Positions 7,042 through 39,203 of a stretch of DNA of 46,879 nt are shown in pieces. Source of the stretch: Candidatus Berkelbacteria bacterium (lineage in GTDB: Bacteria; Patescibacteriota; UBA1384; 2-12-FULL-50-11). The stretch lies in NCBI GenBank assembly GCA_024654065.1, contig JANLIQ010000017.1, positions 1-46,879 on the forward strand. The letters run 5' to 3'. The notes below the pieces were generated by a model. That model did no database searches and was not told where the DNA came from. It worked only from the letters and a program-made list of their open reading frames with translations. The position numbers and the translations under genes were made by a program. Position 1 is the stretch's first letter. Every line of letters begins with the position of its first letter.

Positions 7042-7365
7042 ATGAAGGAGAGGGGAGATATTCTCCAGGATCGTGGTGTACAACCGGAAGGGGAGACGGG
7101 TAAACAAGAGACCCGTTCCGAAGTTGTCGAGAGCCCAGAAACCGTCACCCCAGAAACTAGCTCATCCATATTGGAACCCACGGTATCCCAGGCACCAGAG
7201 AGTCAACAAGTACTAAAAGAGCTTTCTGTGAGTGACGGAAACGCTGTCGTTAGAAAACTCGAGGACTTACCTGCAGACAAGACAGTGGATCCGGTAACAC
7301 TCCAGGAGTTAATAGAGACCACAATGAGTATTACAGATACCGAGCATACTGACACTAATGTCTAG
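7042..7365 (+). CDS. small acidic, probably disordered protein; first gene of the ATPase operon
   Basis: 107 aa rich in E/T/S/P. An extended -10 (TGgTATATT) lies 6 nt upstream of the ATG. Overlaps the next CDS by 8 nt. Confidence 0.55.
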   Translation: MKERGDILQDRGVQPEGETGKQETRSEVVESPETVTPETSSSILEPTVSQAPESQQVLKELSVSDGNAVVRKLEDLPADKTVDPVTLQELIETTMSITDTEHTDTNV

Positions 7366-9790
7366 TTTTTTGCCGACCTACCTTCTTTATACGATATTGG
7401 CCGCGATTATTATTTTGCCGTTGGCACTCATGTGGTTTTTCCGTTACTGGCAAAGAAAAGATGTCTTAGGAGATATCAACTCCTTGATCTGTCTGTTGGT
7501 GTCGCTACCTAAGGAGGCGACTGCCGATCCGCATGCTGCATCCGAACCAGTAAAAGACTTCAAGGGCATGATCGCTCCAATGGAGCAGTTTTACTCAGCA
7601 CTGACGACCATTATTCACCAGCGACACTTTGTGGACTGGCTTTTCAGTACCCCAGCACATATTAGTTTTGAAATCTACTCGGTCGGTGGAGTTATAACTT
7701 TTGGTATTGTCTGTCCAAGACGAATCCGGACTATAGTGGAACGACAGGTACATAGTTTCTTTCCCAACGCCCAGATTAACTTGGGCACCCCACCGAAAGT
7801 GTTTACTACTGAACAGCCAAACATTTCCGGCGTTGTCTTTGAGCAAGGAAAGAATTTTGTTCTACCGCTTAAAACTTACCAATATCTAGAAGCAGATCCG
7901 TTGAGTACTCTCACTACAGCACTAACCAAACTTCAAGGTTCGGGCGCTGCAGCTATTCAGATGCTAATTCGTCCGATCTCCGATAACTGGCGCATGCACA
8001 CCGGAATTGCAAGCGGGCATGTAATAGCCAATAAGATGCATCTCGTTAATCGATCTGGTACTTCTAGGGTTATTGGTACTATTGGAGAGGCCTTAAAAAC
8101 ACCTAAGCCCGAGGAGTCTTCGGGCTACAAGCAGCGCTCACCGGCCCAAGAAGAAGTTCTCAAGGCACTACAAGAGAAGGGTAATAAAACTGGTTTCGAG
8201 TCGATTATTCGTGTGGTATCAACCGGAGAGACACCTCAAGCGGCCCAAGAGAATACCAAAGCCATTATCAGTGCTTTTTCCCAGTTCTATTCACCGCAGC
8301 TAAACAGTCTGAAGTACCGCCAGGTCGAACAAAAGAAGATTGCACGCGACTTCTTGTTGCGCCTGTTTTCCAGAGCCCCCAAGATGATTTTGAACGTTGA
8401 AGAACTTGCGAGTGTTTACCATTTTCCAAACCGCCACACCGAAACCCCAGGGCTAAAGTGGGTTTTGGCTAAAGCACTTCCTGCGCCATCTAACTTACCA
8501 AAAGAAGGCGTCGTAATAGGGGAGAGCAACTATCGAGGTGAGAAGCATTTAGTTCGGCTACAAGAAGAAGATCGTCGTCGTCATATTTTTATGATCGGAA
8601 AAACTGGTACTGGTAAAACTACACTCTTCGAAACAATGATCGAGCAAGATATGTATAACGGTAAGGGGTTGTGCTTTATAGATCCGTTAGGTGATGCAGT
8701 TGAATCTTTATTGAAGAAAGTTCCAACTCATCGCGCAAACGACGTTATAGTTTTTGACCCATCAGATACAGAGTACCCGATTGGTTTAAATTTATTGGAA
8801 TACACCAAACCGGAAGAAAAAGATTTCTTGATCCAAGAAGTTATTGAAATCTTCTATAAACTTTTCGACCCGAACCGGACTGGAATTGTTGGACCACAGT
8901 GGGAGCACTGGGCTCGAAACGCTGCCTTAACTGTAATGAGTCGGCCAGGGGGCGGTAGTTTAATTGATCTACCTCGGCTATTCACCGATGACGGCTTTCG
9001 TGAGCAGTCAGTTTCTTATGTTAGAGACCCGGTTGTTAAAGCATTCTGGGAACAACAGCTCGCCAAGACCGCCGATTTCCACAAGTCGGAGATGTATAAC
9101 TACTTCATCTCCAAATTCGGAAGATTCATGACGAACGACCTAATGCGTAATATTATCGGGCAAACTAAGAGCTCGTTTGATCTACGCGAGCTGATGGACT
9201 CCGGAAAGATTTTATTTGTTAATTTGGCTAAGGGTAAAATTGGCGAAATTAACTCAAATTTGTTAGGTCTAATACTGGTCTCAAAAATCCAAGTGGCAGC
9301 TTTTAGTCGGGCAGATACTCCCGAAGAACAACGTAAAGACTTCTATCTTTATGTAGATGAGTTTCAAAACTTTACAACCGATACTTTTGCAACCATCTTG
9401 GCCGAAGCTCGTAAGTACCGGCTGAATCTAAATATCACTAACCAATACTTTGCTCAGCTAACAGAGCATATACGCGATGCTGTAATTGGTAACGTCGGCA
9501 CACTCATATCTTATCGTATCGGGGCCGAAGACGGAGAATTCCTGGTAAAAGAAATGCCTGGATTAACAGCAGAAGATTTAACTAACCTTGATCGCTTCCA
9601 GGCGTATGTTAAGCTACTGATTGACTTAACGCCAACCAAGCCATTTTCTCTTTCGGGCATTAAGAGTCCTAACGCAGGTACTCCCGAAATGGTCACTTGG
9701 CTCAAGAAAGCAACGCGAGTTAAGTACACCAAGCCACCAGTTATATTTTCACCCACAACTAAGCCAGCAGAAACTGAAAAAAACCCATGA
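7358..9790 (+). CDS. membrane-anchored P-loop ATPase, FtsK/HerA/VirD4 (type IV coupling protein-like) superfamily, paralog 1
   Basis: N-terminal TM helix. Walker A is GKTGTGKTT, Walker B is FYLYVDEFQNF, and there is a GNVGTLISYRIG TraD/TraG-C-like segment. 810 aa. Confidence 0.8.
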   Translation: MSSFLPTYLLYTILAAIIILPLALMWFFRYWQRKDVLGDINSLICLLVSLPKEATADPHAASEPVKDFKGMIAPMEQFYSALTTIIHQRHFVDWLFSTPAHISFEIYSVGGVITFGIVCPRRIRTIVERQVHSFFPNAQINLGTPPKVFTTEQPNISGVVFEQGKNFVLPLKTYQYLEADPLSTLTTALTKLQGSGAAAIQMLIRPISDNWRMHTGIASGHVIANKMHLVNRSGTSRVIGTIGEALKTPKPEESSGYKQRSPAQEEVLKALQEKGNKTGFESIIRVVSTGETPQAAQENTKAIISAFSQFYSPQLNSLKYRQVEQKKIARDFLLRLFSRAPKMILNVEELASVYHFPNRHTETPGLKWVLAKALPAPSNLPKEGVVIGESNYRGEKHLVRLQEEDRRRHIFMIGKTGTGKTTLFETMIEQDMYNGKGLCFIDPLGDAVESLLKKVPTHRANDVIVFDPSDTEYPIGLNLLEYTKPEEKDFLIQEVIEIFYKLFDPNRTGIVGPQWEHWARNAALTVMSRPGGGSLIDLPRLFTDDGFREQSVSYVRDPVVKAFWEQQLAKTADFHKSEMYNYFISKFGRFMTNDLMRNIIGQTKSSFDLRELMDSGKILFVNLAKGKIGEINSNLLGLILVSKIQVAAFSRADTPEEQRKDFYLYVDEFQNFTTDTFATILAEARKYRLNLNITNQYFAQLTEHIRDAVIGNVGTLISYRIGAEDGEFLVKEMPGLTAEDLTNLDRFQAYVKLLIDLTPTKPFSLSGIKSPNAGTPEMVTWLKKATRVKYTKPPVIFSPTTKPAETEKNP

Positions 9791-12720
9791 ACGCCGCAGC
9801 AATTAACCTATTCTTTACCGCATTCTTTTTGTTTGGAGCAATACTACTCTGGTATCGTGCGGCACGCTTCCGTCGTAAAATTAACTGGGAAGAGCCAACA
9901 ACTTATACCTTGCTTTGTATTTCTGTCCCGAAGAATAACGAGCGAACTCCCCAGGCTGCCGAGCAAATGTTTGCAGCAATGCATGGAATCTTTCGCTCGG
10001 ATGCCAGCGATCAACCCCACATTAGCTTTGAAGTCGTTTCCAAGGCCCATGCGATCAATTTTTACGCTTACGTGCCAACAGACTTAAGGGACTTTGTGTC
10101 CAGTCAGATTTTTTCTCAATACCCAACTGTTGAGATTAGAGAAGTAGCACCAGATGGTGATTACGCTCAGCTTAGTGACGAAAAGCATATTGCGGCCACT
10201 GAACTTGACTTAAAAAAACCAACAGCCTTTCCTATTAAGACTTTTCAAAACTTCGAAGTGGATCCGCTCTCGTCAATTACTGGAGTTCTAGGGTCAATAA
10301 ATGAGCAAGAAGAAGTCTGGGTGCAAGTTCTGATAAAACCTATTGATGACGACTGGCAAGAATTGGGGAAGGCAGAAATTAAGAAAATTAAAGAGCCCTT
10401 CAAGGCAATGAGCTTGTGGGAGCTGACAAAAAAAGAGCTGAAAACCTTTGCCTTCGACTTAACCAAGCACGTCGTCATGGGCCCTCCAGCAGAGGATAAG
10501 AAGAAAGACGACAAAAAGAAAGATGACAAAGAGAGTCCAGAAAACGCTGCTGCCAAAGCAATCGAGGAAAAAATTACCAAGCTTGGCTTTGCTACCAACA
10601 TCCGAATATTAGCTGCTTCCACTGATGAGTATTCGGCTAGGGCAAAACTCGAACAGGTAGTGGGAGCTTTTAAGCAGTTCAACACTATCAATCTCAACGC
10701 TTTCGTCTCTAAAGACATCACCAGCGATCGAGAAGCCCACCAGCTATTCGCAAGCAGAACCTTCGGAGATAGCTCGATGATTTTTAACATTACGGAGCTT
10801 GCGTCGATCTATCACTACCCATCGCTGACCGTTGCTACGCCAACAATTGCCTGGGCGGGTTCAAAAAAAGGTGAGCCACCCGCCAACTTGCCGCTAGAGG
10901 GATCTGTCCCGGCAGACGAGTTGACCGTTTTTGGTCAGACCAACTTTCGTAGTGAGGTAAAAAGATTTGGTATTAAAAAGAAAGACCGGAGATTACATAT
11001 GTACATCATCGGAAAGACTGGTACTGGTAAGTCTACGTTGATGGAGAATATGATTATTGACGATATTACAGAGGGTAGGGGACTGGCGGTAGTTGACCCA
11101 CATGGTTCGTTGATAGAACACGTTTTGGAATTTATTCCTGAGCACAGACTGCAGGATGTTGTTTACTTCAACCCAGCCGACCGTGAATTCCCAGTCGGTT
11201 TCAACTTACTTGAGAATGTAGATCCCGAGCAAAAGAACCTCGTTGCTTCCGGAGTGGTCGGAATCATGGAGAAAATCTTTGGTGAGATCTCTTGGGGGCC
11301 GCGGTTAGAGTATATTTTACGCAATGTTATCTTGGCATTGCTGGAGTATCCCAACTCAACTTTCATGGGTATCATGCGCATACTAACGGATAACGCCTAT
11401 CGTAGGATGGTTTTAAATGAAGTGAAGGATCCAGTCATTCGCGACTTCTTTATTAACGAGTACGAAAAGTATGAACCTAAATTCCGTACTGAAGCCATCG
11501 CGCCGATTCAAAATAAGGTCGGTCAATTCTTGTCGGCTTCAACGATCCGTAACATTGTCGGTCAGCCTAAATCAACTGTTGATATCCGTCAGGTAATGGA
11601 TGAAGGTAAGATTTTACTTTGCGATTTATCTATAGGTAAGATTGGCGAGGATAATTCGGCTCTTCTGGGATCTATGTTAATTACCAAGATTCAGTTGGCG
11701 GCAATGGGTCGAGTGAATATAGCCGAGGACCAGAGGCGAGACTTCTACCTTTATGTGGACGAATTTCAGAATTTTGCTACCGAATCTTTCGCTACAATTC
11801 TCTCAGAGGCGCGCAAATATCGACTCAATTTAGCGATGGCCAACCAGTACACCGCGCAGATGCCTGAGAGCGTTTCTAATGCTGTTTTCGGCAACGTCGG
11901 AACGATGATAAGCTTCCGAGTCGGCGCACAAGATGCACAATTATTAGTTAAAGAGTATGAGCCAGTCTTTGATGTCAACGATTTAGTAAATTTGGATAAT
12001 TACCAGATCTACTTGAAGATGGCTATCGACGGTGTGACTGTGCCTGCCTTCTCGGCAGGGACTCTGCCACCACGATCTGAGAAGACCAACTTAACCGAGC
12101 AGATTATCGCTAACAGCAGGCAGATGTACTCACGTCCAGTCGAAGAAGTGGAGGATTACATTACTGAGTGGTCAAGTCCTATTAACCTCTCCGACCCCTC
12201 AAAGCAACCAATACCTCAGCCTTACGAAGAGCTAAAGACTAAAGCCGATGCCTTTGCTGGACCGGAAGGGGGACTGAAAGCAGGGGATAGCGAAGAGAAA
12301 AAAGAAGTGGCACTTGAAGGTAAAAGCAGGGGAGAGGGCGAAGAAAAAACTTCAGTTGCCAAAGATCCGGGTAGGGGGTCTACTTTACCAGCTGGTATGA
12401 AAACAGAGATCATTAAAGATAGGTTCGACCGACCTTGGTACGCCGTAACACAGGGCATAGGGGAGGAGGTCGAAGAAGCTGAAACGGAAAGAACCCCGAT
12501 AGTTGAACAACCGCAACAAACTGTATCTGAAGTGGGGGAGAATCTTGAAAAAAACACAGACCTCGATACTCAGAGCGGGGGAGAGGCCACAGAAAGTGAC
12601 CAATTAATTAGTTGGGACGATGCTGAGAAGCTAGGTATTCAGGTGAAAATGGAGCCAAATGACGGTCTAAATAATACCGCTGACGATCAGGGCCTAACAC
12701 CTTTAGACGAAATCCGTTAA
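9787..12720 (+). CDS. membrane-anchored P-loop ATPase, same family, paralog 2, with an acidic low-complexity C-terminal tail
   Basis: ATGA overlap with paralog 1. Walker A GKTGTGKST, Walker B FYLYVDEFQNF, then GNVGTMISFRVG. A KKDDKKKDDK insert is present, and the last ~190 aa are rich in E/D/G/T. Confidence 0.8.
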   Translation: MNAAAINLFFTAFFLFGAILLWYRAARFRRKINWEEPTTYTLLCISVPKNNERTPQAAEQMFAAMHGIFRSDASDQPHISFEVVSKAHAINFYAYVPTDLRDFVSSQIFSQYPTVEIREVAPDGDYAQLSDEKHIAATELDLKKPTAFPIKTFQNFEVDPLSSITGVLGSINEQEEVWVQVLIKPIDDDWQELGKAEIKKIKEPFKAMSLWELTKKELKTFAFDLTKHVVMGPPAEDKKKDDKKKDDKESPENAAAKAIEEKITKLGFATNIRILAASTDEYSARAKLEQVVGAFKQFNTINLNAFVSKDITSDREAHQLFASRTFGDSSMIFNITELASIYHYPSLTVATPTIAWAGSKKGEPPANLPLEGSVPADELTVFGQTNFRSEVKRFGIKKKDRRLHMYIIGKTGTGKSTLMENMIIDDITEGRGLAVVDPHGSLIEHVLEFIPEHRLQDVVYFNPADREFPVGFNLLENVDPEQKNLVASGVVGIMEKIFGEISWGPRLEYILRNVILALLEYPNSTFMGIMRILTDNAYRRMVLNEVKDPVIRDFFINEYEKYEPKFRTEAIAPIQNKVGQFLSASTIRNIVGQPKSTVDIRQVMDEGKILLCDLSIGKIGEDNSALLGSMLITKIQLAAMGRVNIAEDQRRDFYLYVDEFQNFATESFATILSEARKYRLNLAMANQYTAQMPESVSNAVFGNVGTMISFRVGAQDAQLLVKEYEPVFDVNDLVNLDNYQIYLKMAIDGVTVPAFSAGTLPPRSEKTNLTEQIIANSRQMYSRPVEEVEDYITEWSSPINLSDPSKQPIPQPYEELKTKADAFAGPEGGLKAGDSEEKKEVALEGKSRGEGEEKTSVAKDPGRGSTLPAGMKTEIIKDRFDRPWYAVTQGIGEEVEEAETERTPIVEQPQQTVSEVGENLEKNTDLDTQSGGEATESDQLISWDDAEKLGIQVKMEPNDGLNNTADDQGLTPLDEIR

Positions 12721-29960: not shown

Positions 29961-30407
29961 TCAGCCGTTCTGGATCTGGTCACGTAAAATTTTTGAAACA
30001 AGACCCATATCTGCCTGACCCTTGAGTTTAGAGCTCAAAGCCCCCATTGCAGTACCCATTTGACTGATGTCTGTCGGATTAGATGAAAGGTATTCAGCTA
30101 TAACAGCCTTGATCCCCTCTTCACTCATCTGCTCAGGTAAGTATTTTTTTAAAAGTTCGGCTTCGGAGGCTTCGTTTGCTGCTAAGTCTGGTTTATTAGC
30201 CTGCTTAAAGAGAGTTTCGGCTTCTATACGCTTTTTTACTTCTTTTTGGATTAGGGAAACAACCTGTTCATCAGAAAGCGCTTGGCCAGCTTCAATTTCA
30301 GCATTTTTGATACTAGATTTAAGCAAACGTAGAGTATCACGCGAAAAGTTATTACCAGACTTGAGGGCTGTAGTTAGTTCAGTCTCTATTTGTTCGATCA
30401 AAGCCAT
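29961..30407 (-). CDS. GatB/YqeY domain protein
   Basis: 148 aa with typical YqeY sequence (ALKSGN..RDTLRLLKS..EAGQALSDEQ). Confidence 0.8.
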   Translation of the reverse strand: MALIEQIETELTTALKSGNNFSRDTLRLLKSSIKNAEIEAGQALSDEQVVSLIQKEVKKRIEAETLFKQANKPDLAANEASEAELLKKYLPEQMSEEGIKAVIAEYLSSNPTDISQMGTAMGALSSKLKGQADMGLVSKILRDQIQNG

Positions 30408-30604
30408 TAGAAAGTTCGGAAAGCTCTTCGGCGGACTGCTCTAGCTTGAGCGGACTGGCGGCGTTTAAAACGAGTTGGTTTCTTCTCAAAAAATCTACGT
30501 CGTTTTATCTCAGTCATGATCTCTGACTGTTGGACGTCACGGAAAAAACGTCGTAATACGACTTCTACGGGTAGGGCTCTTTTTTCTTCGCTGTATTCAG
30601 CCAT
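30407..30604 (-). CDS. rpsU: 30S ribosomal protein S21
   Basis: 65 aa and basic. Contains the FEKKPTRFKRRQS motif. Confidence 0.85.
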   Translation of the reverse strand: MAEYSEEKRALPVEVVLRRFFRDVQQSEIMTEIKRRRFFEKKPTRFKRRQSAQARAVRRRAFRTF

Positions 30605-30673
30605 TAGTTTTTAAATTGTAGCAGGAATTGGTGCGAAAGTTAAGAGATTCTGTGGATGCAGGGGGCTGATCAC

Positions 30674-31225
30674 CTACCTTCTGACACCAAACTTCAGGGC
30701 TACAAGCGTATCATATCCTTGGGTGACACGATCGGCTTCGGTCACACCTAATCGCTGAAGAAACTTAAATAATTTGTTTTGAGTTTCTTCAGGATTATTG
30801 TCGGTGACCGATAGTTCTTCTAGCTCGATAAAAGTACCCAAGTCTTCAACCTCGTCAACGCAAATCTCTATTCCGTGATAATCCGCTTTTTGCCGTTGCT
30901 TCTTTACCTCTACTGATAGTTTGTACTCAAGCGCTTCCAGTATTCTGGTAAGGGCGTCCGGGTCAACGACAGCTGTCTCCTCCGTTTGAACAGCTAGCTC
31001 GTTGACTCCGGAGCGTTTGAGCGCTAAAACAGCTTGGTTATTTTCTTTACGAATTCGCAGAAAGTTAGTATCTGGTTTGAATATTGTGATTTCCTCGAGA
31101 TCCTTCGGCGAAAATATCAGATCGTGTTGATAGGTGGGCTCTGATAGCTTTATCCCAAGTGACCCTAATCTTGCAAACAGCAGTCCAGGATTTGTTACTC
31201 TCGCCTTTACCTCAATCTCATTCAT
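30674..31225 (-). CDS. CYTH-domain protein (class IV adenylate cyclase / triphosphate tunnel metalloenzyme)
   Basis: N-terminal ExExK motif (EIEVKARV). 183 aa. Confidence 0.75.
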   Translation of the reverse strand: MNEIEVKARVTNPGLLFARLGSLGIKLSEPTYQHDLIFSPKDLEEITIFKPDTNFLRIRKENNQAVLALKRSGVNELAVQTEETAVVDPDALTRILEALEYKLSVEVKKQRQKADYHGIEICVDEVEDLGTFIELEELSVTDNNPEETQNKLFKFLQRLGVTEADRVTQGYDTLVALKFGVRR

Positions 31226-31778
31226 GCTCTAACTCATTAGCTAAATCTTGAAAATTGATAGCTGATCTCACCTGCCCTGACTCGGCTTTGGTGAGGGATC
31301 GCGTCTGCTCTAACAGCTCTTGAGCGGACGTCAAGCCGATGCCTAACCCATTCGGGCGGGTGTAAAGCGTGACGTGAAACGGCTGAGTCGGTATTTCTAT
31401 ACCCAGAGCTTTACGCATACCTACAAAGAAATTCTCTGTACCGTTGGTTTTGCACATGATTATCACAGTCTTTTTCTCACGTTCTTCGGCAACCCGAAGC
31501 TCATCCATAAAGTCGCTGACACTAGTTGGTTCTTCAGTAAGCAAACGACCTGATTCCTCGAGAATCTCCTCTTCCGCTTCTTCGAGCGAGGTACCCTGCT
31601 TCTCCGCTAAGATTGGCGCGTATTTCTTGACCGACAGTATACTCATATGAAATTCTGGTTTGGCAACTAACCTCTCCCCATCGACCTCTACTTCAGGCGA
31701 AATGTGTAGTAACGGTAGCTCTAGGCCAACATAGCCGCCCGCATATCTATAACCTTCCGGAAGGTTCTCTATGCTCAT
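31218..31778 (-). CDS. 2H phosphoesterase superfamily protein (LigT-like)
   Basis: Contains two H-x-(S/T)-x motifs, FHMSIL and FHVTLY. Start chosen at the ATGA overlap with the upstream stop. Confidence 0.6.
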   Translation of the reverse strand: MSIENLPEGYRYAGGYVGLELPLLHISPEVEVDGERLVAKPEFHMSILSVKKYAPILAEKQGTSLEEAEEEILEESGRLLTEEPTSVSDFMDELRVAEEREKKTVIIMCKTNGTENFFVGMRKALGIEIPTQPFHVTLYTRPNGLGIGLTSAQELLEQTRSLTKAESGQVRSAINFQDLANELEHE

Positions 31779-32224
31779 TTTTGACCCCAATCAAGCAGCT
31801 CGGTGAATCGAATGTAATAGCCGTAAGGGTCGGACATACGAAAGTCTTTCCAGGTTCTCTTACCATCGCCCTTCTCTTTCAATTCCTGGACGACGTTGTC
31901 TTTTAGATCTTTAAGCACCTCTTCGTAAAAGGCGTGAATTTCCTGAACTGGAATTGTCAGCGATATGGCATAACCTCGCGGAGTATTCTTATCGAATTGT
32001 TTGAAATATGACTGATCGTAAACTCGTTCATCGTCTCCGTAGAAATTTATCATAGTATCACCGAGCGGGTCCCCTCTTTGCATAACCATGTAGCCGGGAT
32101 ATTCTCCCTTAACATCTTCCGATATTATTTCAAAACCAAGTTTTGAATAAAAATCCTTAACCGGAGCAAACTCCGGCACATGAAGCTCGATAATTAGATT
32201 GTTTGCAATCGGTACTTCTGCCAT
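31775..32224 (-). CDS. VOC/glyoxalase-bleomycin resistance family protein
   Basis: 149 aa with beta-alpha-beta-beta-beta module-like sequence. It is the first gene behind repeat copy 1. Confidence 0.6.
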   Translation of the reverse strand: MAEVPIANNLIIELHVPEFAPVKDFYSKLGFEIISEDVKGEYPGYMVMQRGDPLGDTMINFYGDDERVYDQSYFKQFDKNTPRGYAISLTIPVQEIHAFYEEVLKDLKDNVVQELKEKGDGKRTWKDFRMSDPYGYYIRFTELLDWGQK

Positions 32225-32230
32225 TACCCA

Positions 32231-32259
32231 ATTCTACTCCTGAACCTAGAAATGTCGAG
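32231..32259 (-). repeat. 29-bp cassette promoter element, copy 1
   Basis: Minus strand reads CTCGACATTTCTAGGTTCAGGAGTAGAAT: TCGACA, 16 nt, TAGAAT. The ATG at 32224 follows 6 nt later. Confidence 0.8.
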
Positions 32260-32280
32260 CCACTCTGCTATTGTTAGGGC

Positions 32281-32697
32281 ATGGATGATTTTGTCGGTGT
32301 AAAAATCGCGTTACTTACTTCGGACGAAAAGTTGGTTGTATATTTAAGGGACAATAAACCCGACATAAATTTTCCTGGACTATGGGACTTCCCTGGTGGG
32401 GGTCGCGAGGGTAACGAAACCCCGACAGAATGTATTGTGCGTGAAGTCATGGAAGAATTCGGAATCAAGCTAAGAGCAAGTGGTCTTACCTTCTCTAGGA
32501 CTTTTCCTGCGATGAACGATGAAACTAAAACGGGATACTTCATGGTTGGCAGAGTATCTCAAAAAGATATTGACTCTATTAAATTCGGCAGCGAAGGTCA
32601 GCGGTGGAAGCTGATGGGGATAAAGGAGTTTATGGAAAGTGATGAAGTCGTCGAACCGTTAAAGAATAGGCTCGACTCCTATCTGTCCGCACTGTGA
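32281..32697 (+). CDS. NUDIX hydrolase
   Basis: Nudix box GGGREGNETPTECIVREVMEEFGI. Confidence 0.85.
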   Translation: MDDFVGVKIALLTSDEKLVVYLRDNKPDINFPGLWDFPGGGREGNETPTECIVREVMEEFGIKLRASGLTFSRTFPAMNDETKTGYFMVGRVSQKDIDSIKFGSEGQRWKLMGIKEFMESDEVVEPLKNRLDSYLSAL

Positions 32698-32710
32698 GGT
32701 TGTGCTCAAG

Positions 32711-32727
32711 GGTCCAAAAATGTCGAG
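32711..32727 (-). repeat. truncated copy (5' half only) of the cassette element, copy 2
   Basis: Minus strand reads CTCGACATTTTTGGACC, directly abutting the SGNH stop codon. The -10 half is absent. Confidence 0.6.
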
Positions 32728-33267
32728 TTATGTCCGTAGTATTTTCACGATCTCGTTTATTACCGTTCCATACCCCAGGTCATTAAAATGGATTCCATCT
32801 TCTTCGTGGTAGTCCTGGCCTGAATCTAGAATCTGTCTGAATACCGCGGGGTCGATGTATCTGATGTTGTTTTGGATAAGCACATTTTTTATTGCCTCAG
32901 CATATTGTTTGATTGTGGCGTTGGATCTTTGCTTTTTCAATTCCTGCCGATCTTCGTCAATTGGCGGCGGTAGCAGGAAAATCATTACCGAACCACTAAA
33001 GTCTTCAATAATTTTTTTAACGTTTTCAGCGACGGTCGCGATCTCTAGTTGTTGCCATGTTGAAGAGTCGTTCGTACCGAAGGAAAAAACCACAACCTCG
33101 GGCTGGAGTCGAGCGATGTAAGGCGCCTTGACGACTCCGTCATTAGTATCCCAGCCACAAGTGGCGCAGTTATAAACTTGATAACCAGTATTATTTTCCA
33201 GCGTTGAGACGTCAGCTTTGTGAAAATTGGCAATCAAGCTGTCGCCAAAAAGAATTAATTTCTTCAT
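32728..33267 (-). CDS. SGNH/GDSL hydrolase
   Basis: N-terminal LILFGDSLI (GDS block). The DGIHFN block is near the C-terminus. Confidence 0.8.
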   Translation of the reverse strand: MKKLILFGDSLIANFHKADVSTLENNTGYQVYNCATCGWDTNDGVVKAPYIARLQPEVVVFSFGTNDSSTWQQLEIATVAENVKKIIEDFSGSVMIFLLPPPIDEDRQELKKQRSNATIKQYAEAIKNVLIQNNIRYIDPAVFRQILDSGQDYHEEDGIHFNDLGYGTVINEIVKILRT

Positions 33268-33426
33268 CTAGAAATCCACCTCGATAACTTCTGGAGTGCT
33301 CTTGTAGTCACGAAGACGAGCCCACTCCCATTGCGTTCGCTCCGGGGTGTGGCGATGCATGAGGAGCAATCTGCCTTGTGGATCTAAAATAATACAACCA
33401 GCCAGGCGAACGGATAGGTCAGACAT
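33268..33426 (-). pseudogene. N-terminal NUDIX fragment (52 codons)
   Basis: MSDLSVRLAGCIILDPQGRLLLMHRHTPERTQWE resembles a Nudix N-terminus but ends before the Nudix box. The rest of track ORF 33268..33576 is antisense noise over the hydrolase gene. Confidence 0.45.
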
Positions 33427-33967
33427 CACCATAAATTGTTTTAATGTAGTCCAGTAGCTCGGGAATAGTTGCTTCGTTGACGAAGTGCTTTTTGTTTTTA
33501 AGCTTGAGTACTTTTGGTTGAAGCTTGCTGGCAATAAACTCAAATTCAGTCTGTGGAATATATGGGTCGGCATCATCGTAAATTAAAGCAATCTTCTCTT
33601 GATTGACTTTTATTGCTGACCAATCCCACGGCTTGTCGTAGTAGCCGCTCTGTTTTTCGAGCTCGTCGTCCAAATCCGTACAGCTAGGTGATATTAAGAC
33701 CGAACCTTTTATCTTATGATTTTCGGCGTAACGCATCGAAGCTGTACCGCCCGATGACCAGCCAACTAAAACATCGTCTTTACCAACTTTGACGTGATTT
33801 TCGAGAAAAGGTAACCAGTACTCGGCTCTAGCGATTACTGAATCTGGCATCGTTTCGAAGAATGTCGGGAAGCCTAGTTTTTCTAGTTCCATTTTCAACC
33901 ATTCACCAAAAGCAAACGACCAATGGGTTGCGTGATTGCCATGGATGAAGATTATTCTTGGTTTCAT
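33419..33967 (-). CDS. alpha/beta hydrolase (YdeN/RBBP9-like serine hydrolase)
   Basis: Contains IIFIHGN and the nucleophile elbow GWSSGG. 182 aa. Confidence 0.7.
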   Translation of the reverse strand: MKPRIIFIHGNHATHWSFAFGEWLKMELEKLGFPTFFETMPDSVIARAEYWLPFLENHVKVGKDDVLVGWSSGGTASMRYAENHKIKGSVLISPSCTDLDDELEKQSGYYDKPWDWSAIKVNQEKIALIYDDADPYIPQTEFEFIASKLQPKVLKLKNKKHFVNEATIPELLDYIKTIYGDV

Positions 33968-34554
33968 TTCTTTCTTGCTAATAGCCAGGCGGGCTCGGGA
34001 ATGAAAGTTATTTCCGACCAGGTGTCGATCTCGTGCTCGGTAAAATCGTAATACTTTTGGTAGGCAGTTTCGACGCTACCGTGCAAGGCATCTTTCCAGT
34101 CAAAACCAAGCTTGGTCGCCAAATCTTTAATCTCTGATTCGTTCGGCGCTTCTAGCTCGACAAATGCTGGGATCAACGGCCAGGTGTCGATCGTAATTTC
34201 ACAATTTCCAAGCGTCCACTTCTCTCTTTTAGTCTCTTGGTAGGATTTCTGAACTAGACCGATTGCCTTAAGTAGGTCAACCGTTTTCTCGAAGTCCCCT
34301 ACCGTTGTCTCGATCTCTTGCGTTCCGTGAAGAGTGCGATCATTCAGCTGTTTATACGAGAAAGTGATCTTGTCTCCTTCGTCACGAACTCGGATCCAGC
34401 CACCAATTTCTTTTAGTCGCGAATCTGGGTAATCAAAAACACAGCGACGCATCTGACGCTCGGCATGAACGAGTTTGGCACTGATCGCTCTCAACCGGTT
34501 CCGCAGTTTGTCGGCAACAACATCCAAGAACTTAGCTTCAACTTCTACTTGCAT
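33964..34554 (-). CDS. CYTH-domain protein, second copy
   Basis: N-terminal ExExK motif (VEVEAKF). ATGA overlap with the hydrolase gene. Confidence 0.7.
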   Translation of the reverse strand: MQVEVEAKFLDVVADKLRNRLRAISAKLVHAERQMRRCVFDYPDSRLKEIGGWIRVRDEGDKITFSYKQLNDRTLHGTQEIETTVGDFEKTVDLLKAIGLVQKSYQETKREKWTLGNCEITIDTWPLIPAFVELEAPNESEIKDLATKLGFDWKDALHGSVETAYQKYYDFTEHEIDTWSEITFIPEPAWLLARKK

Positions 34555-34560
34555 TACTCA

Positions 34561-34589
34561 ATTCTACTCCTGAACCAAGAAATGTCGAG
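34561..34589 (-). repeat. 29-bp cassette promoter element, copy 3
   Basis: Minus strand reads CTCGACATTTCTTGGTTCAGGAGTAGAAT. It starts right after the upstream TAA, and the ATG at 34554 follows 6 nt later. Confidence 0.8.
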
Positions 34590-34979
34590 TTACTTACGAA
34601 TCTTTGGAATTAGCTCTTGTGGGACTTTGTGCACTTCTACTTTTCTGAGGCCCATAACACTTGCTTTCATCAACCGATGAAGGCCGTCAAGAATCAGCCA
34701 ACGGTCTCGCCACCGCATTATATCGATCGGGTGTGATAAATCGGCATTGGCCACTCGTTCATGCTCGTCGTAATATTGATCGGGGCTGTCCAGGACCTGG
34801 CTTGACTTTAAATCGTAATAGCCATTTGGTTTTGTCCAGAGAAACGGTATGTCAAAATGCCAAGCCAGCTCTTTGATGTCCATTCCCTCAACTGGCAAAT
34901 CTAGTGCCCAAACTTTAGGTTCGTCCCAATCAAAGTCAAACCCCACTTCTTTGATTATCGCAGGCATTTGTCGATCCAT
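34590..34979 (-). CDS. ParB-like nuclease (ParB/Srx fold) domain protein
   Basis: Contains WLILDGLHRLMKA, matching the ParB N-terminal DG-x-HR motif. 129 aa. Confidence 0.6.
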   Translation of the reverse strand: MDRQMPAIIKEVGFDFDWDEPKVWALDLPVEGMDIKELAWHFDIPFLWTKPNGYYDLKSSQVLDSPDQYYDEHERVANADLSHPIDIMRWRDRWLILDGLHRLMKASVMGLRKVEVHKVPQELIPKIRK

Positions 34980-34985
34980 ATCTAG

Positions 34986-35014
34986 ATTCTACTCCCGAAC
35001 CAGGAATTGTCGAG
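34986..35014 (-). repeat. 29-bp cassette promoter element, copy 4
   Basis: Minus strand reads CTCGACAATTCCTGGTTCGGGAGTAGAAT. The ATG at 34979 follows 6 nt later. Confidence 0.8.
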
Positions 35015-35054
35015 TTAAGAACAGAAAGTGACCACCGAATCCCTTTCGGTGGTC
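35015..35054 (-). terminator. intrinsic terminator of the GC-rich orphan at 35076..35639
   Basis: Minus strand reads GACCACCGAA-AGGGA-TTCGGTGGTC followed by ACTTTCTGTTCTT. Confidence 0.65.
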
Positions 35055-35075
35055 AGGAAAAAGTTCTTGGCGCTG

Positions 35076-35639
35076 CTACCTGCGTTTTGCCATAGCAAGG
35101 TCGTGGAGTTCGCTCTCAGACAATAGTGCTAACCAAAAGCAAACCTTCCAGGACAGCTCTTGCTCCTCTGACAAGTCGTCTGAGAGACCCAGAAGCTGAT
35201 AGACCTGATCGATCGGCACTGGTCGCGCGTCTTGCTGGACGTCCCAAGCAAACTCTGTCGACATGTAGTCTCCCCCGCCTAGCCTCTTCCCGAGCTTAAC
35301 AGTGAAGACCGGCTCGCCATAGAAGCTTGGGCGAAGCGGCCAGTCACTTAAGAGTCGCCAACGATCACGGAATAGCAGCCTGGCTATAACCATCTCGTCC
35401 TTCTTGGTCCACTCTTTCAATAAGCTGTGAACTTCGTAGAGTAAGGCGATCCATCGGGCGACATTCCGTTCGGCATTCAAGGTGTAGAGCTGAACCTTAG
35501 CGCTACGAAGAGCAAGGCGTAGAGCGCTGGGCTCTCTTGGCAGAATCACGCTGAGCCACCACAGGTGAAGTCGAAGCCTTAGGCGGCCACGAAACACTTT
35601 TGTTGACACATCGTCGAAGCAATCAATGGAAAGGGACAT
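35076..35639 (-). CDS. GC-rich orphan protein (Arg/Leu/Trp-rich), unknown function
   Basis: ~60% GC. AGGAGG SD lies 6 nt upstream of the ATG. Bracketed by element copies 4 and 5. No motif recognised. Confidence 0.55.
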   Translation of the reverse strand: MSLSIDCFDDVSTKVFRGRLRLRLHLWWLSVILPREPSALRLALRSAKVQLYTLNAERNVARWIALLYEVHSLLKEWTKKDEMVIARLLFRDRWRLLSDWPLRPSFYGEPVFTVKLGKRLGGGDYMSTEFAWDVQQDARPVPIDQVYQLLGLSDDLSEEQELSWKVCFWLALLSESELHDLAMAKRR

Positions 35640-35784
35640 CGTGGCCTCCTATTTGGTTCTCGGATACTACAGGAATTTCGGCAAAAAGTCAACCCATGTT
35701 TTCGATTTTGTAGATTCTAGACTGCCGATACTACCTGGAAGTGGTGCGTTGGGTCTGGAATTTGCAATTCGCCCAGAGGCTCTT

Positions 35785-35812
35785 TTCTACTCCCGAACCT
35801 AAAAATGTCGAG
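35785..35812 (-). repeat. cassette promoter element, copy 5 (-10 is TAGAAA)
   Basis: Minus strand reads CTCGACATTTTTAGGTTCGGGAGTAGAA. It lies ~145 nt upstream of the orphan ATG. A further TAGAAT-containing partial copy is at 35712-35722. Confidence 0.7.
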
Positions 35813-35821
35813 ACCATTTTC

Positions 35822-35849
35822 TTGCAAATAGAATTACTAACGAGATAAT
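35822..35849 (+). promoter_or_regulatory. promoter TTGCAA-16-GATAAT, 6 nt from the ATG
   Basis: Read directly from the sequence. The ATG is at 35856. Confidence 0.55.
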
Positions 35850-35855
35850 TGGGCC

Positions 35856-36377
35856 ATGGATCTCAAGGAGCATCGGCGAGCGTATACAAAGGGGATGAAG
35901 AAAACGACGCTGGGGATTATCCGGAAGCCATCGGGCGAAGTTTGTTTAGCGATGAAAAAGCGTGGTTTTGGCGCCGGCAAGTGGAATTTCTCTGGCGGTA
36001 AGGTCCTGCTCGACGAGACACCCGAGCAATGTCTAGTTCGCGAGACCAAGGAAGAGTTTGGGGTAAAGATGAGCAACCTTCGACCGGTTGGTGTTCTCTA
36101 TTTCTATTTTTCCGATGTTCCAATTGAGAAAAATTGGAATCAAAAATGCTATGTCTTTGAGGCAGAAAATTGCGACGGTGAGCCACAAGAAAGTGAGGAG
36201 ATGCTCCCGAAGTGGTGGCGCCGAGACGCAATTCCATACCCAAAAATGTGGCAGGAGGATGAGTATTGGATCGAGCCCGTTCTCGACGAGCAGGTTTTAA
36301 CTGGCTACTTTCTCTTCACCTCAAGAGACGTCTGCTTGGAAAAAGAAATCGTAATAGGCAAAATTATCGACGAGTGA
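35856..36377 (+). CDS. NUDIX hydrolase, MutT/MTH1-like (oxidised nucleotide sanitiser)
   Basis: Contains KRGFGAGKWNFSGGKV and the Nudix box GGKVLLDETPEQCLVRETKEEFGV. Confidence 0.8.
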   Translation: MDLKEHRRAYTKGMKKTTLGIIRKPSGEVCLAMKKRGFGAGKWNFSGGKVLLDETPEQCLVRETKEEFGVKMSNLRPVGVLYFYFSDVPIEKNWNQKCYVFEAENCDGEPQESEEMLPKWWRRDAIPYPKMWQEDEYWIEPVLDEQVLTGYFLFTSRDVCLEKEIVIGKIIDE

Positions 36378-36379
36378 AT

Positions 36380-36961
36380 TCAGCGCGGTCGCCAGTTTTT
36401 GTTTAAATCTTCTTCTGTGACGCGGAAAATGGTTTCGTGATCGCCAGGCTTGAGACTATGGAGTTTGCAGAGTTCTAGGCCGCATTCACGCTTCTCTTTC
36501 TCTTTGGACTCCTTCTCTTTTAATATTTCTGGCGGAAAAGAAAAGTCGGTGTTGATGAGCTCACAGTTATAGTCTGGTCCAAGTACCAGTTCGAGTGTCC
36601 AAAGAGCCCTCTGACCCATCGGATAGACACTTACAAGGGCAATTCGGGTCCAATTATTCGGTATAAGAAATTTCTTTTTAATGAAATAGGCATTAGTGAC
36701 GGTGGTGTACGCTTCTTCTTCTAGCAGTATCGCCTTTTCAGGTAAGCCAAGATTTTTGGCGTAGTTTGCCATCGCTCGGGCTTCGGTGGTTGGCGGGGTG
36801 TAGTCGAGGGTGTATGTCCACTTACCGCTAAAGATTATTTTGTCGGCTTGGCCGGAATCATAGAGCTTAACGGCTTCCTCAACTGTAGATTTAGCACTTT
36901 CTGATGTTGACCCGTCTTTATACACCCCTCTGCCAAAAACCAAAATTGCATCATATTTCAT
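36380..36961 (-). CDS. DUF218/YdcF-like protein
   Basis: Begins ILVFGRGV.. and carries conserved YdcF-like core features. 193 aa. Confidence 0.55.
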   Translation of the reverse strand: MKYDAILVFGRGVYKDGSTSESAKSTVEEAVKLYDSGQADKIIFSGKWTYTLDYTPPTTEARAMANYAKNLGLPEKAILLEEEAYTTVTNAYFIKKKFLIPNNWTRIALVSVYPMGQRALWTLELVLGPDYNCELINTDFSFPPEILKEKESKEKEKRECGLELCKLHSLKPGDHETIFRVTEEDLNKNWRPR

Positions 36962-36984
36962 AACGTTAAATTGTTAGTTTAGTC

Positions 36985-37641
36985 CTAGACATTACTTAAC
37001 AGTTCGAGAAATTTCTGATCAGTCAATAAGGAGTGGGTTAATGATATGATGCTCGTTCCTTCATCCCATTTACTGGCAATATACTGCCGAACTTCTTGAT
37101 GTTGAAGGTATCCTTTGTCTTCCCGTTCGATTAGATCACCAAATTCCAGATTGAGTAAAACCGTTAAAGACTCTTTGTATTCGTTGTACAGCTGGGGGCT
37201 GATATTTAATTTGATGTATTTATGAGTGAAAAGGTGTAGTAGCTCGTGGATGCAGACCATATTTGGTTCGGCGCTAAACAAATTGAGAAAAAAGTAATCC
37301 TCTTGAGTATTGTAGCTACAGCGTTCATTGAGACTAAGATAACAGGCGAACTCCGTGTCATCGTTTTGTGCCTCAAAAAGCTTGGTAAGGCGTTCAAAAA
37401 CGTCTGTATCTACGGCTTGCCATCCATCAGAAAACTGTCGAATCTTTTCTTCGGCAGATATTCCCTCTTCAGTTACAATTTTTCGGCAGGCGGCAGTGAC
37501 GGTCACTTCGGAGTTGATATCGACACCTAACTCTTTGAGTTTTCTACTAAAGTCTGAGGGGCGACTACGATTAAGCGATCTATTGCCAGCTTGCAGATTA
37601 AGGAACTCTTTTTCGGCTTCGTACCGGAATACTAAACGCAT
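36985..37641 (-). CDS. HExxH-motif protein (putative zinc metallopeptidase-like), unknown family
   Basis: Contains IHELLHLFTH. Its ATG overlaps the HIT stop codon. Confidence 0.5.
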   Translation of the reverse strand: MRLVFRYEAEKEFLNLQAGNRSLNRSRPSDFSRKLKELGVDINSEVTVTAACRKIVTEEGISAEEKIRQFSDGWQAVDTDVFERLTKLFEAQNDDTEFACYLSLNERCSYNTQEDYFFLNLFSAEPNMVCIHELLHLFTHKYIKLNISPQLYNEYKESLTVLLNLEFGDLIEREDKGYLQHQEVRQYIASKWDEGTSIISLTHSLLTDQKFLELLSNV

Positions 37642-37973
37642 TAATACATTCCTTTGGCAGGAGCGCCACCAAGCAGGTGGAGGTGGACGTGGTCTATCTC
37701 TTGCCCTGCGTGCTTGCCGACATTAAACAATAAACGGTAACCAGTTTCTTTCACTCCAAGAATCTGGGCGATTTCTTCGCTTCCAGTGAGCATATCCCCT
37801 ATCTCTTCCGGTCGTAGCTCCTCTGGTCTTTCAACGTGTCGTTTTGGAACAATCAGTACGTGGACGGGGGCTTTCGGGTGAATATCTCTGAAAGCAATAT
37901 AATGGCTAGTTTCTATTACTTTTTCACACGGAAGTTCTTCTGAAATAATCTTACAAAACAAACAGTTTTCCAT
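37641..37973 (-). CDS. HIT-family (histidine triad) nucleotide hydrolase/transferase
   Basis: Contains CLFCKII and HVHLHLLGG. Start is taken at MENCLF; the track GTG at 37982 is possible. Confidence 0.85.
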   Translation of the reverse strand: MENCLFCKIISEELPCEKVIETSHYIAFRDIHPKAPVHVLIVPKRHVERPEELRPEEIGDMLTGSEEIAQILGVKETGYRLLFNVGKHAGQEIDHVHLHLLGGAPAKGMY

Positions 37974-38009
37974 TATGGTCACATCTTACCAAAATAGTAC
38001 CTAAACTCA

Positions 38010-38876: not shown

Positions 38877-39203
38877 CTACTCCTTTAATCTAAACCAAAT
38901 TATTTTTACGATAGTTTCGGGGCCAATGGATTGATCGTAGTAGTCAGAAAAAGATGCGTACATTTCTTCGTTGCTTCCATACTTTTCATGTCCCTTGATC
39001 TCTTCTTTTTTCAATTTACCCATCTGTCTCTCTAGAACCTTAGTGACCACTGCTCGGGTAAACACTTCTCTCGTATTAGCATTTACGAATTCAATTTCGT
39101 CATCCTTTTGGATGTTTTTATCATCAAACAAACGCCATGTTGAGTATTTCTTACCAGATAAGACGCAAGAAACCAGCTCTTCTCTGAATTTAAGAGACTT
39201 CAT
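38877..39203 (-). CDS. ASCH-domain protein
   Basis: 108 aa with an ASCH-like N-terminus (KFREELVSCVLSGKKYSTWRL). Confidence 0.6.
   Translation of the reverse strand: MKSLKFREELVSCVLSGKKYSTWRLFDDKNIQKDDEIEFVNANTREVFTRAVVTKVLERQMGKLKKEEIKGHEKYGSNEEMYASFSDYYDQSIGPETIVKIIWFRLKE

Follow-up and report, generated by a model that had tools for sequence, protein, structure and literature searches.

The 29-bp element and its copies in the window

The stretch analyzed here (the window) is positions 1 to 46,879 of contig JANLIQ010000017.1, DNA assigned to Candidatus Berkelbacteria in the Candidate Phyla Radiation (CPR). Its minus strand carries several copies of a 29-bp element, CTCGACATTTCTAGGTTCAGGAGTAGAAT, which stand before unrelated genes in a variable accessory-gene island and which probably serve as promoters of leaderless mRNAs. 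The island lies between a HIT gene and a lower flank of rpsU-yqeY-ybeY-ftsA-ftsZ (27.0-30.6 kb). From the HIT side, its genes encode a 218-aa HExxH protein, a DUF218 protein, a NUDIX protein (plus strand), a 187-aa open reading frame (ORF), a ParB/Srx-like protein, a CYTH protein, and an alpha/beta hydrolase. These are followed, toward rpsU, by a NUDIX remnant, a GDSL gene, another plus-strand NUDIX gene, a glyoxalase-fold gene, a 2H-phosphoesterase-like 190-aa gene, and a second CYTH gene. The features of the locus are as follows, with w1 to w4 denoting the full copies of the element.

32231..32259, minus strand: w1, full element; C-TCGACA (32258-32253), 16 nt, TAGAAT (32236-32231)
34561..34589, minus strand: w2, full element; TCGACA, 16 nt, TAGAAT; adjoins the TAA stop codon (34590-34592) of the upstream 129-aa gene
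34986..35014, minus strand: w3, full element; TCGACA, 16 nt, TAGAAT; directly downstream of an intrinsic-terminator-like hairpin
35784..35812, minus strand: w4, orphan copy; -35 and spacer intact, -10 reads TAGAAA, no start codon after it
32727-32714, minus strand: 14-nt remnant of the 5' module, CTCGACATTTTTGG; directly after the TAA stop codon (32728-32730) of the GDSL gene (32728-33267)
35029..35055, minus strand: terminator-like hairpin, 11-bp stem and then CTTTCTGTTC; ends the 187-aa gene unit, just upstream of w3
35664..35692, minus strand: ordinary promoter-like site TTGACT-17-TAGTAT, then an AGGAGG ribosome-binding site and the 187-aa gene (35076-35639); a contrast to the element
30650..37640, minus strand: variable island, between HIT (37641-37982) and rpsU/S21 (30407-30604)-yqeY

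Copies in the window were found with a search for the 29-mer and then with the relaxed pattern TCGACA-N6-GGTTCRGGAGTAGAA. The 29-mer search matched the minus strand at 32231-32259 (0 mismatches), 34561-34589 (1 mismatch), and 35784-35812 (3 mismatches); the relaxed pattern added 34987-35013, and the full copy there (34986-35014) had 4 mismatches. In 100 dinucleotide-preserving shuffles, the chance expectation was 0 for both searches, compared to the four full copies observed. There was no further copy of the element in the 47-kb window, and nhmmer found only partial matches elsewhere (E>5). The sequence CTCGACA alone occurred 16 times in the whole window, and GGTTCRGGAG occurred in the four copies only.

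A preliminary description of this DNA had listed three minus-strand copies that differ at a few positions, a diverged fourth copy at 35785-35812, and a half copy at 32711-32727. The three similar copies were recovered where they had been placed and were absent from the shuffles. The fourth copy also exists, with its start at 35784, and the half copy proved to be a remnant confined to 32714-32727. Each full copy had been said to read TCGACA, 16 nt, TAGAAT; this was true of w1, w2, and w3 and untrue of w4, which is best viewed as a decaying copy that has lost the otherwise invariant last T of its -10. The gene next to w4, that of 187 aa, has a promoter-like site of its own.

The same description had placed an ATG exactly 6 nt after the -10 in three cases, which is what we found. 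The start codons are those of the glyoxalase-fold gene (ATG at 32224; gene 31775-32224) after w1, the CYTH gene (ATG at 34554; gene 33964-34554) after w2, and the 129-aa ParB/Srx-like gene, which encodes a DGLHR motif (ATG at 34979; gene 34590-34979), after w3. It had also noted that two copies start at the stop codon of the upstream gene, and this holds for w2 and for the remnant after the GDSL gene; the TAA before w3 (the 35014 copy) is not an in-frame stop codon of the upstream gene. The w1 copy is located in a divergent intergenic region of 57 bp, with no same-strand gene upstream, and is back to back with the divergent NUDIX promoter TGCTATTGT (32266-32274, plus strand). At the remnant, the 3' part was replaced or decayed where the convergent NUDIX gene ends.

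Conservation of the element and its reading as a promoter

A mismatch-tolerant scan of 288 kb, consisting of the window and loci fetched from relatives (numbered L002-L031), yielded 50 unique copies of the element, 47 of them full-length. As for the check in related genomes that had been suggested earlier, the element is present in CPR relatives, before unrelated genes. The downstream genes are the CYTH, glyoxalase-fold, and ParB/Srx-like genes in the window and members of more than 20 unrelated families in the relatives, among them deformylase, peptidase S51, ion channel, phosphotransferase (APH), SET, SDR, methyltransferase, DUF1801/OmdA, and histidine phosphatase genes. Similarity was confined to about 29-40 nt at positions -36 to -1, and the flanks were unrelated. 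Read 5' to 3', the element has the form (TAR stop)-C-TCGACA-WTYYYW-GGTTC-RGGAG-TA(G/C)AAT-YTAGnn(n)-ATG, in which TCGACA is the putative -35 hexamer, the 16 nt from WTYYYW to RGGAG form the spacer, and TA(G/C)AAT is the putative -10 hexamer.

The last hexamer was TAGAAT in 21 of the 47 full copies and TACAAT in 15; TATAAT, TAAAAT, TAAGAT, TATGAT, and TAAAGT made up the rest. By position, T1 was present in 47/47, A2 in 46/47, and T6 in 46/47 copies, and position 3 was divided among G (22), C (16), A (5), and T (4). Such variation, in which T1, A2, and T6 are kept and position 3 is free, is the signature predicted for a sigma-70 -10 box. The distance from the hexamer to a following ATG was 6 nt in 20 copies and 7 nt in 19 (39/47 full copies, from many genomes). 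The putative -35, TCGACA, matches five of the six positions of TTGACA, and the spacer was 16 bp in all short-form copies, those of the window included. When scored against the sigma-70 consensus, the three intact window copies reached 10/12, behind a single 11/12 site in the region. The TAnnnT-type variation of the -10 and the spacing of the ATG lend strong comparative support to the promoter and leaderless-mRNA reading put forward in the preliminary description.

We propose, with a probability of roughly 0.7, that the element is a portable -35/-10 (sigma-70-type) core promoter module for leaderless accessory genes in a variable island. We infer promoter activity and the position of the transcription start from the sequence patterns described above. 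Transcription would start at, or within one base of, the A of the ATG and would yield a leaderless mRNA. One and the same module stands before unrelated small accessory enzyme genes, in one variable island at a fixed chromosomal site in one CPR clade. A leaderless gene that lacks a Shine-Dalgarno sequence has to supply a 5' end of its own, and for this reason every gene or mini-operon of the array that is translated independently has a copy to itself; the second genes of a unit overlap the stop codon of the first gene with their start codon (ATGA). Among relatives, gene-sized units have come, gone, and been exchanged, and the junctions coincide with the element.

The start codons on which this proposal depends are consistent with the lengths of related proteins. 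At 196-200 aa and with 100% query coverage, the CYTH homologues match the window protein in length, which indicates that the predicted ATG is the true start, and the glyoxalase orthologues begin at the same residue as the window protein. An element of the w2 type was also found upstream of CYTH in L019/L005, L026, and L029. The location of w1 in a divergent 57-bp intergenic region means that a promoter is required there, and the location of w3 directly behind a strong terminator-like hairpin also speaks for a promoter.

The leaderless layout appears to be common in this genome and its relatives and not special to the element. Among genes without the element, TAnnnT peaked 6-7 nt before the ATG (8/40 window genes and 28/91 genes in relatives). 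Of the 77 putative leaderless promoters that were classified, 31 had neither the 5' nor the 3' module of the element, 28 had both, 10 had the 5' module and a diverged 3' part, and 8 had the 3' module only. The 31 promoters with neither module mostly have a TGn extended -10, and we conclude from them that the element is a second, distinct class of putative promoter. The idea that GGTTCRGGAG is a general requirement of RNA polymerase in these organisms was rejected on the same count, 31/77 leaderless promoters of the same genomes being without both modules. Many core genes share this layout: at the window gene starts 4570, 7042, 32281, 38877, 39244, and 44953, TAnnnT precedes the ATG by exactly 6 nt, and there is no Shine-Dalgarno sequence. 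Most of the leaderless starts that do not belong to the element have a TGn extended -10 and no recognizable -35; the start at 38877 is without TGn. A weaker TAnnnT peak was observed in loci of Zambryskibacteria and Veblenbacteria.

The sequence between and around the hexamers was also conserved. The six positions that the search pattern left free were still limited to W-T-Y-Y-Y-W, the base preceding TCGACA was C in 44/47 copies, and the discriminator leaned to YTAG. Strong spacers across bacteria share a generic composition, and the 3' end of the UP element is enriched in C (PMC12641261). The element follows this generic strong-spacer pattern: it has C before the -35 and then, in the spacer, a T-tract, GC, TT(C) or an AT-tract, and a G-rich stretch (PMC12641261).

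Recent cassette duplication, which had been offered earlier as one reason for this conservation, did not hold up. The downstream genes are unrelated, and the mean Hamming distance between copies was 5.5 within a genome and 5.3 between genomes (permutation P = 0.75). Equal distances within and between genomes rule out recent duplication and gene conversion, and they point to purifying selection on one consensus.

Several observations weigh against a simple core promoter. Position 2 of the -35 was C in 47/47 copies and the hexamer was never TTGACA, even though T fits the sigma-70 consensus better. In addition, GGTTC at -22 to -18 and G at -13 were as invariant as the hexamers, and a plain promoter contacted by RNA polymerase alone would not predict the invariant C and GGTTC. 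The copies were gathered by similarity to a consensus, and the apparent conservation (43 bits) is inflated to that extent. Because the element fills the whole intergenic space, the island junctions that coincide with it, described below, are partly what any gene-level insertion or deletion would produce.

Longer forms of the element in relatives present a further difficulty. In these forms, a GC-rich, partly palindromic insert of 20-55 nt splits the element, with the layout (TAR)CTCGAC[AATTCCAG], insert, AGGTTCRGGAG-TAnnnT-N6-7-ATG. An example is CTCGAC-TCCGCCAGCTGGCGGATCAGC-AGGTTCGGGAGTAGAAT at L019 7690-7628 (minus strand); others are at L003 2142-2190 (minus strand), L027 8225-8271, L029 5564-5631, L018 864-930 (minus strand), and L002 1555-1647 and 4200-4265. 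The insert families (e.g., CCGCCAGCTGGCGG) are few and recur in different genomes and before different genes. Here CTCGAC is located 32-73 nt upstream of the -10, which is too far for a -35 box, so the 5' module cannot be a -35 box only. Remnants with the 5' module alone (window 32727, L019 8816, L006 4097 and 4847, and L020 2158) persist after stop codons, and copies with the 3' module alone occur at L027 9973, L010 1447, and L002 7546. The element is thus, as judged from its sequence, composed of two modules, and the 5' module probably has some role or history beyond that of a -35 box. Either the long forms would have arisen by insertion into the short form, or the 5' module would serve a separate purpose where the upstream unit ends.

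Turnover of the island and competing explanations

The large-collection scans used the strict TAGAA pattern TCGACA-N6-GGTTCRGGAGTAGAA, for which about 0.5 chance matches are expected in 596 Gb. Matches were obtained at 6 loci of 5 CPR genomes, which bear the label Saccharibacteria, Saccharimonadales, or Berkelbacteria, at 12 metagenome loci, and in 1 IMG/VR contig. Each matched GTDB genome had the exact pattern in one region only. The window FtsZ is 73-77% identical to proteins labelled "Berkelbacteria" and to ones labelled "Saccharimonadales"; spread across phyla was considered and dropped, since both labels denote one clade by this FtsZ identity. The CYTH loci of Zambryskibacteria and Veblenbacteria carried no copy of the element.

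The IMG/VR contig, UViG_3300025276_000123, has its copy at L014 2729-2755 (= L007 638-664), with 5 nt between the element and the ATG of the gene for a structural protein of 719 aa. It encodes portal and virion structural proteins (PHROGs) and is a real phage, which suggests a phage of this CPR clade that may use the host type of promoter. A scan of the viral collection with the TACAAT variant gave no matches. A literature search returned no paper with the motif and none on CPR promoter repeats.

Copies of the element were clustered. The window has four and the remnant in 3.6 kb, and relatives have 6 in 3.5 kb (L006), 6 in 4.3 kb (L009), 7 in 9.3 kb (L020), and 6 in 8.4 kb (L029), and there were no copies in the other 43 kb of the window or in 24 kb of the core genome of close relatives. 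The preliminary description had regarded this region as an accessory cluster with the element at cassette boundaries, and it had suggested comparing synteny; both points were borne out, as the units between elements come and go among relatives. In L031, whose FtsZ is 85% identical, HIT is followed directly by rpsU (S21) (L031 2473-3035 versus window 30407-37982), which makes this locus an empty site for the island of roughly 7 kb in the window. In L019, whose core proteins are 76-88% identical, the flanks are the same and the genes are partly different: NYN, peptidase S51, deformylase, and deoxyribosyltransferase genes stand in place of the window NUDIX, 187-aa, and ParB/Srx-like genes. L026, whose CYTH protein is 90% identical, has another gene arrangement, and the content also differs in L009.

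Homology between these loci breaks at the edges of the element. On its 5' side, window 34589 corresponds to L026 124 and L019 8301. On its 3' side, window 32231 corresponds to L019 7132, where only a TAGCTT remnant of the -10 is left. L017 shares the NUDIX gene and w1 with the window (89% identity) and has a different gene after the element, with the edge at window 32215.

Other features of the island and window bear on its history. The NUDIX remnant (33268-33426, minus strand, 52 codons) corresponds to an intact 140-aa gene in L026, with homology ending near 33325; its TAG stop codon adjoins the GDSL ATG, as though part of the island had been replaced here without involvement of the element. 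The 187-aa ORF (35076-35639, minus strand) had no family matches and lies in a kilobase with a GC content of 0.507 versus about 0.45. Its promoter is of the classical type (TTGACT-17-TAGTAT), and it also has an AGGAGG ribosome-binding site and a strong terminator, features that set it apart from its neighbors; it may have been acquired recently. The CYTH or class IV adenylate-cyclase-like protein (33964-34554, minus strand) matched 2293 database proteins at E<=1e-20 and shares 60-90% identity with proteins in metagenome-assembled genomes labelled Berkelbacteria, Parcubacteria, Veblenbacteria, and Zambryskibacteria; judged by these matches, it is unusually conserved across the CPR. The second CYTH gene, at 30674-31225, is a different one.

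Three further island proteins have recognizable motifs: the 190-aa protein (31218-31790, minus strand) has two H-x-S/T motifs and resembles a 2H phosphoesterase, the 218-aa protein (36985-37641, minus strand) has HELLH, a zinc-protease-like HExxH motif, and the 129-aa protein (34590-34979, minus strand) has DGLHR and a weak match to the ParB/Srx-like protein SbnI. Island proteins were considered as candidate regulators and set aside, as these three carry catalytic-type motifs and the 187-aa ORF matched nothing. At L019 11854-11900 (= L004 near 3530, minus strand), a terminator hairpin, GGTTCGGAGAGATCGCTCTCCGAACC, and a T-run lie upstream of the DUF218 gene, together with a diverged 3' module, GTTTATGGGTACAAT, that is followed by 6 nt and ATG; the window DUF218 gene is without either. 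Outside the island, two adjacent large genes (810 and 977 aa) at 7358-12720 (plus strand) match the coupling-protein and TraG-TrwB domains of type IV secretion.

If the element is a core promoter module, three candidate reasons can be inferred for its constant non-hexamer positions. The first in our ranking, held tentatively, is an extra clade-specific factor or a specialized contact of the holoenzyme. In second place, and also conceivable, is a near-optimal promoter for RNA polymerase alone that was copied and kept under purifying selection. An added role as a short homology for cassette exchange is third and improbable. Searches for genes of regulators, sigma factors, and recombinases, Pfam scans among them, found none in the window or around the islands.

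The strongest rival to a core promoter module is a regulon, in which a clade-specific factor or an alternative sigma would contact CTCGACA and GGTTCRGGAG and would co-regulate the "house-cleaning" and nucleotide-metabolism enzymes of the island; identity between copies would then be maintained by the protein and not by copying. The conservation of about 43 bits over 29 bp (inflated as explained above) is far above the need of a housekeeping promoter, the C at -35 position 2 and the GGTTC at -22 to -18 are invariant, and ordinary promoters of the same genomes are without these motifs. Under selection to one consensus, copies of one genome should resemble each other no more closely than those of different genomes, as was observed, and the gene set (NUDIX, HIT, CYTH, 2H phosphoesterase, deoxyribosyltransferase, and glyoxalase) is functionally coherent.

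However, a search of the window and the islands examined revealed no regulator or sigma gene, and a phage structural gene carries the element. The copies are also concentrated in one island and not dispersed like those of typical regulons. Moreover, orthologues gain and lose the element: the L019 glyoxalase gene has only a -10-like remnant, and the CYTH gene is preceded by the 3' module alone in L027 and lacks an element of its own in L020. The element is asymmetric, with no dyad and no properly spaced direct repeats by inspection. Its conservation pattern is nevertheless compatible with an asymmetric binder encoded elsewhere. On balance, we consider a regulon unlikely, though it deserves to be taken seriously.

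A more doubtful proposal combines the promoter with the cassette-like behavior of the island. The element would be the two-module boundary of a hitherto undescribed, integrase-free CPR gene-cassette system, in which the 5' CTCGACA ends one unit, the 3' GGTTCRGGAG-TAnnnT is the leaderless promoter of the next gene, and a clade-specific protein recognizes the invariant parts. If this were true, naturally competent, genome-reduced cells would plug accessory enzymes in and out at one hot spot and express them without a ribosome-binding site.

It is less probable still that the element is at heart a recombination or homology site of an integrase-independent gene-cassette system, with promoter activity as a passenger benefit. 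Units of element plus gene would be shuffled at one hot spot, either by some site-specific enzyme or, following natural transformation, by RecA-dependent recombination between repeats of 29-40 bp. Such exchange would account for the empty site in L031 and the variable content between conserved flanks, for the junctions at the 5' edge (34589 versus L026 and L019) and at the 3' edge (32231 versus L019 and 32215 versus L017), and for the existence of 5'-only and 3'-only remnants. It would also fit the upstream TAR-C, which is kept even where there is no in-frame stop codon, and the long forms, whose conserved ends and variable hairpin-forming center loosely recall attC. In contrast, neither the window nor the +/-10 kb around the islands yielded a recombinase, the element has no inverted-repeat structure and no consensus fold and is too short for attC, and other rearrangements of the island bypass it (the NUDIX truncation near 33325 and the GDSL fusion). 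Furthermore, second-order selection for recombination alone cannot hold 29 bp constant, and the -10-type variation and ATG spacing indicate selection on promoter function.

It is very improbable that the repeat is an RNA-level element and not a promoter, with a function in polycistronic transcripts made by read-through, for example that of a processing site or a long-spaced Shine-Dalgarno sequence. In favor of this reading, GGAG or GGGAG is kept 12-13 nt upstream of the ATG and the genes form same-strand arrays mostly without terminators. Against it, RNAalifold found no consensus structure (0 pairs) in the 47 copies, single-sequence folds of long and short forms were no more stable than shuffles, window 31000-37000 had no Rfam hit at E<=1 (Rfam 15) and six long-form loci matched only mir-84 (E = 0.13, far below the gathering score and irrelevant), no gene on the same strand lies upstream of w1 and a terminator precedes w3, Shine-Dalgarno sequences of this genome are normally spaced by about 5 nt (AGGAGGccacgATG), and the TAnnnT-type variation would be left unexplained.

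Significance and comparison with known systems

The CPR, or Patescibacteria, are mostly uncultivated, and to our knowledge almost nothing is known about how they initiate transcription and translation. The comparisons made here provide strong evidence for widespread leaderless expression in this clade. The element itself is a defined, compact, native promoter candidate that could become a genetic tool in Saccharibacteria-type organisms, and it is a sequence tag for locating the variable island and its gene pool in metagenomes. If its invariant non-hexamer positions bind a dedicated factor or serve cassette exchange, very small genomes would have a new mechanism of regulation or gene shuffling; otherwise, the element would be a clean natural case of promoter reuse under strong purifying selection. 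Interest centers on the invariance of the element beyond its hexamers, on its long forms with two modules, and on an island that behaves like a cassette array.

Some known sequences were readily set aside. The CodY box, PurBox, and Spo0A box, the sigma-H, sigma-B, and sigma-54 promoters, the phage T7 and SP6 promoters, and the tRNA T-arm were compared with the element by eye, and all had a poor fit or the wrong spacing. Repetitive extragenic palindromic (REP) sequences, miniature inverted-repeat transposable elements (MITEs), and Correia-type repeats were rejected too, given that the element has no inverted repeat and no consensus fold and is found in one island per genome instead of being dispersed genome-wide.

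In mycobacteriophages, start-associated sequences (SAS) include the ribosome-binding site, and stoperators are repressor sites. Like the element, they are asymmetric, orientation-locked, conserved short repeats at gene boundaries that often touch stop or start codons. Unlike it, they occur in phage genomes and are not known to involve -35/-10 architecture or leaderless spacing. The minimal mobile elements (MMEs) of Neisseria are variable loci exchanged by natural transformation, and they share with the island the conserved flanks, the alternative content, and the lack of dedicated mobility genes. However, MMEs are not known to have an internal repeated promoter, whereas here the same 29-bp module is present in each unit.

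The island also resembles integron arrays, with their attC sites, and clusters of attC sites lacking an integron integrase (CALINs) in that small, unrelated accessory genes in the same orientation are bounded by repeats and vary between strains at a fixed locus. In integrons, the cassettes are usually promoterless and attC is downstream; here the repeat is upstream and includes the putative promoter. Pfam found no integron integrase or tyrosine recombinase among the window ORFs or the island neighbors of L019, L020, L027, and L029. An attC site is an imperfect inverted repeat of 57-141 nt (R''-L''...L'-R') and the element is 29 nt with no hairpin, and an integron origin was rejected on these grounds and the lack of an integrase. 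Complementarity between CTCGAC and GT(T)CG(GG)AG is weak, and both sides are invariant.

Leaderless sigma-70-type promoters have been mapped in Actinobacteria (e.g., Mycobacterium) and also in Deinococcus. The element has the same general layout, that is, TAnnnT 6-7 nt before the start codon, no Shine-Dalgarno sequence, a -35-like hexamer 16 bp upstream, and an orientation toward the gene. What the leaderless promoters of those organisms have in common is no more than a degenerate -10, in some cases with TGn. In the element, near-identity extends over the -35, all of the spacer, and the discriminator, before unrelated genes in one island, and the transcription starts are predicted.

The putative mobile promoters (PMPs) of Matus-Garcia, Nijveen, and van Passel (2012) were defined by at least 80% identity over at least 50 nt in the region from -150 to -50 (PMC3575422). 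Like these, the element is highly similar upstream sequence that is found before non-homologous genes, is shared between taxa, and has no mobile element or Rfam family attached. It differs from them in being 29-36 nt long, in its location at -36 to -1, and in that it includes the -10 and fixes the position of the start codon, which places it outside the formal definition (PMC3575422). The region screened for PMPs mostly excludes the -10, and the element would have escaped that screen (PMC3575422).

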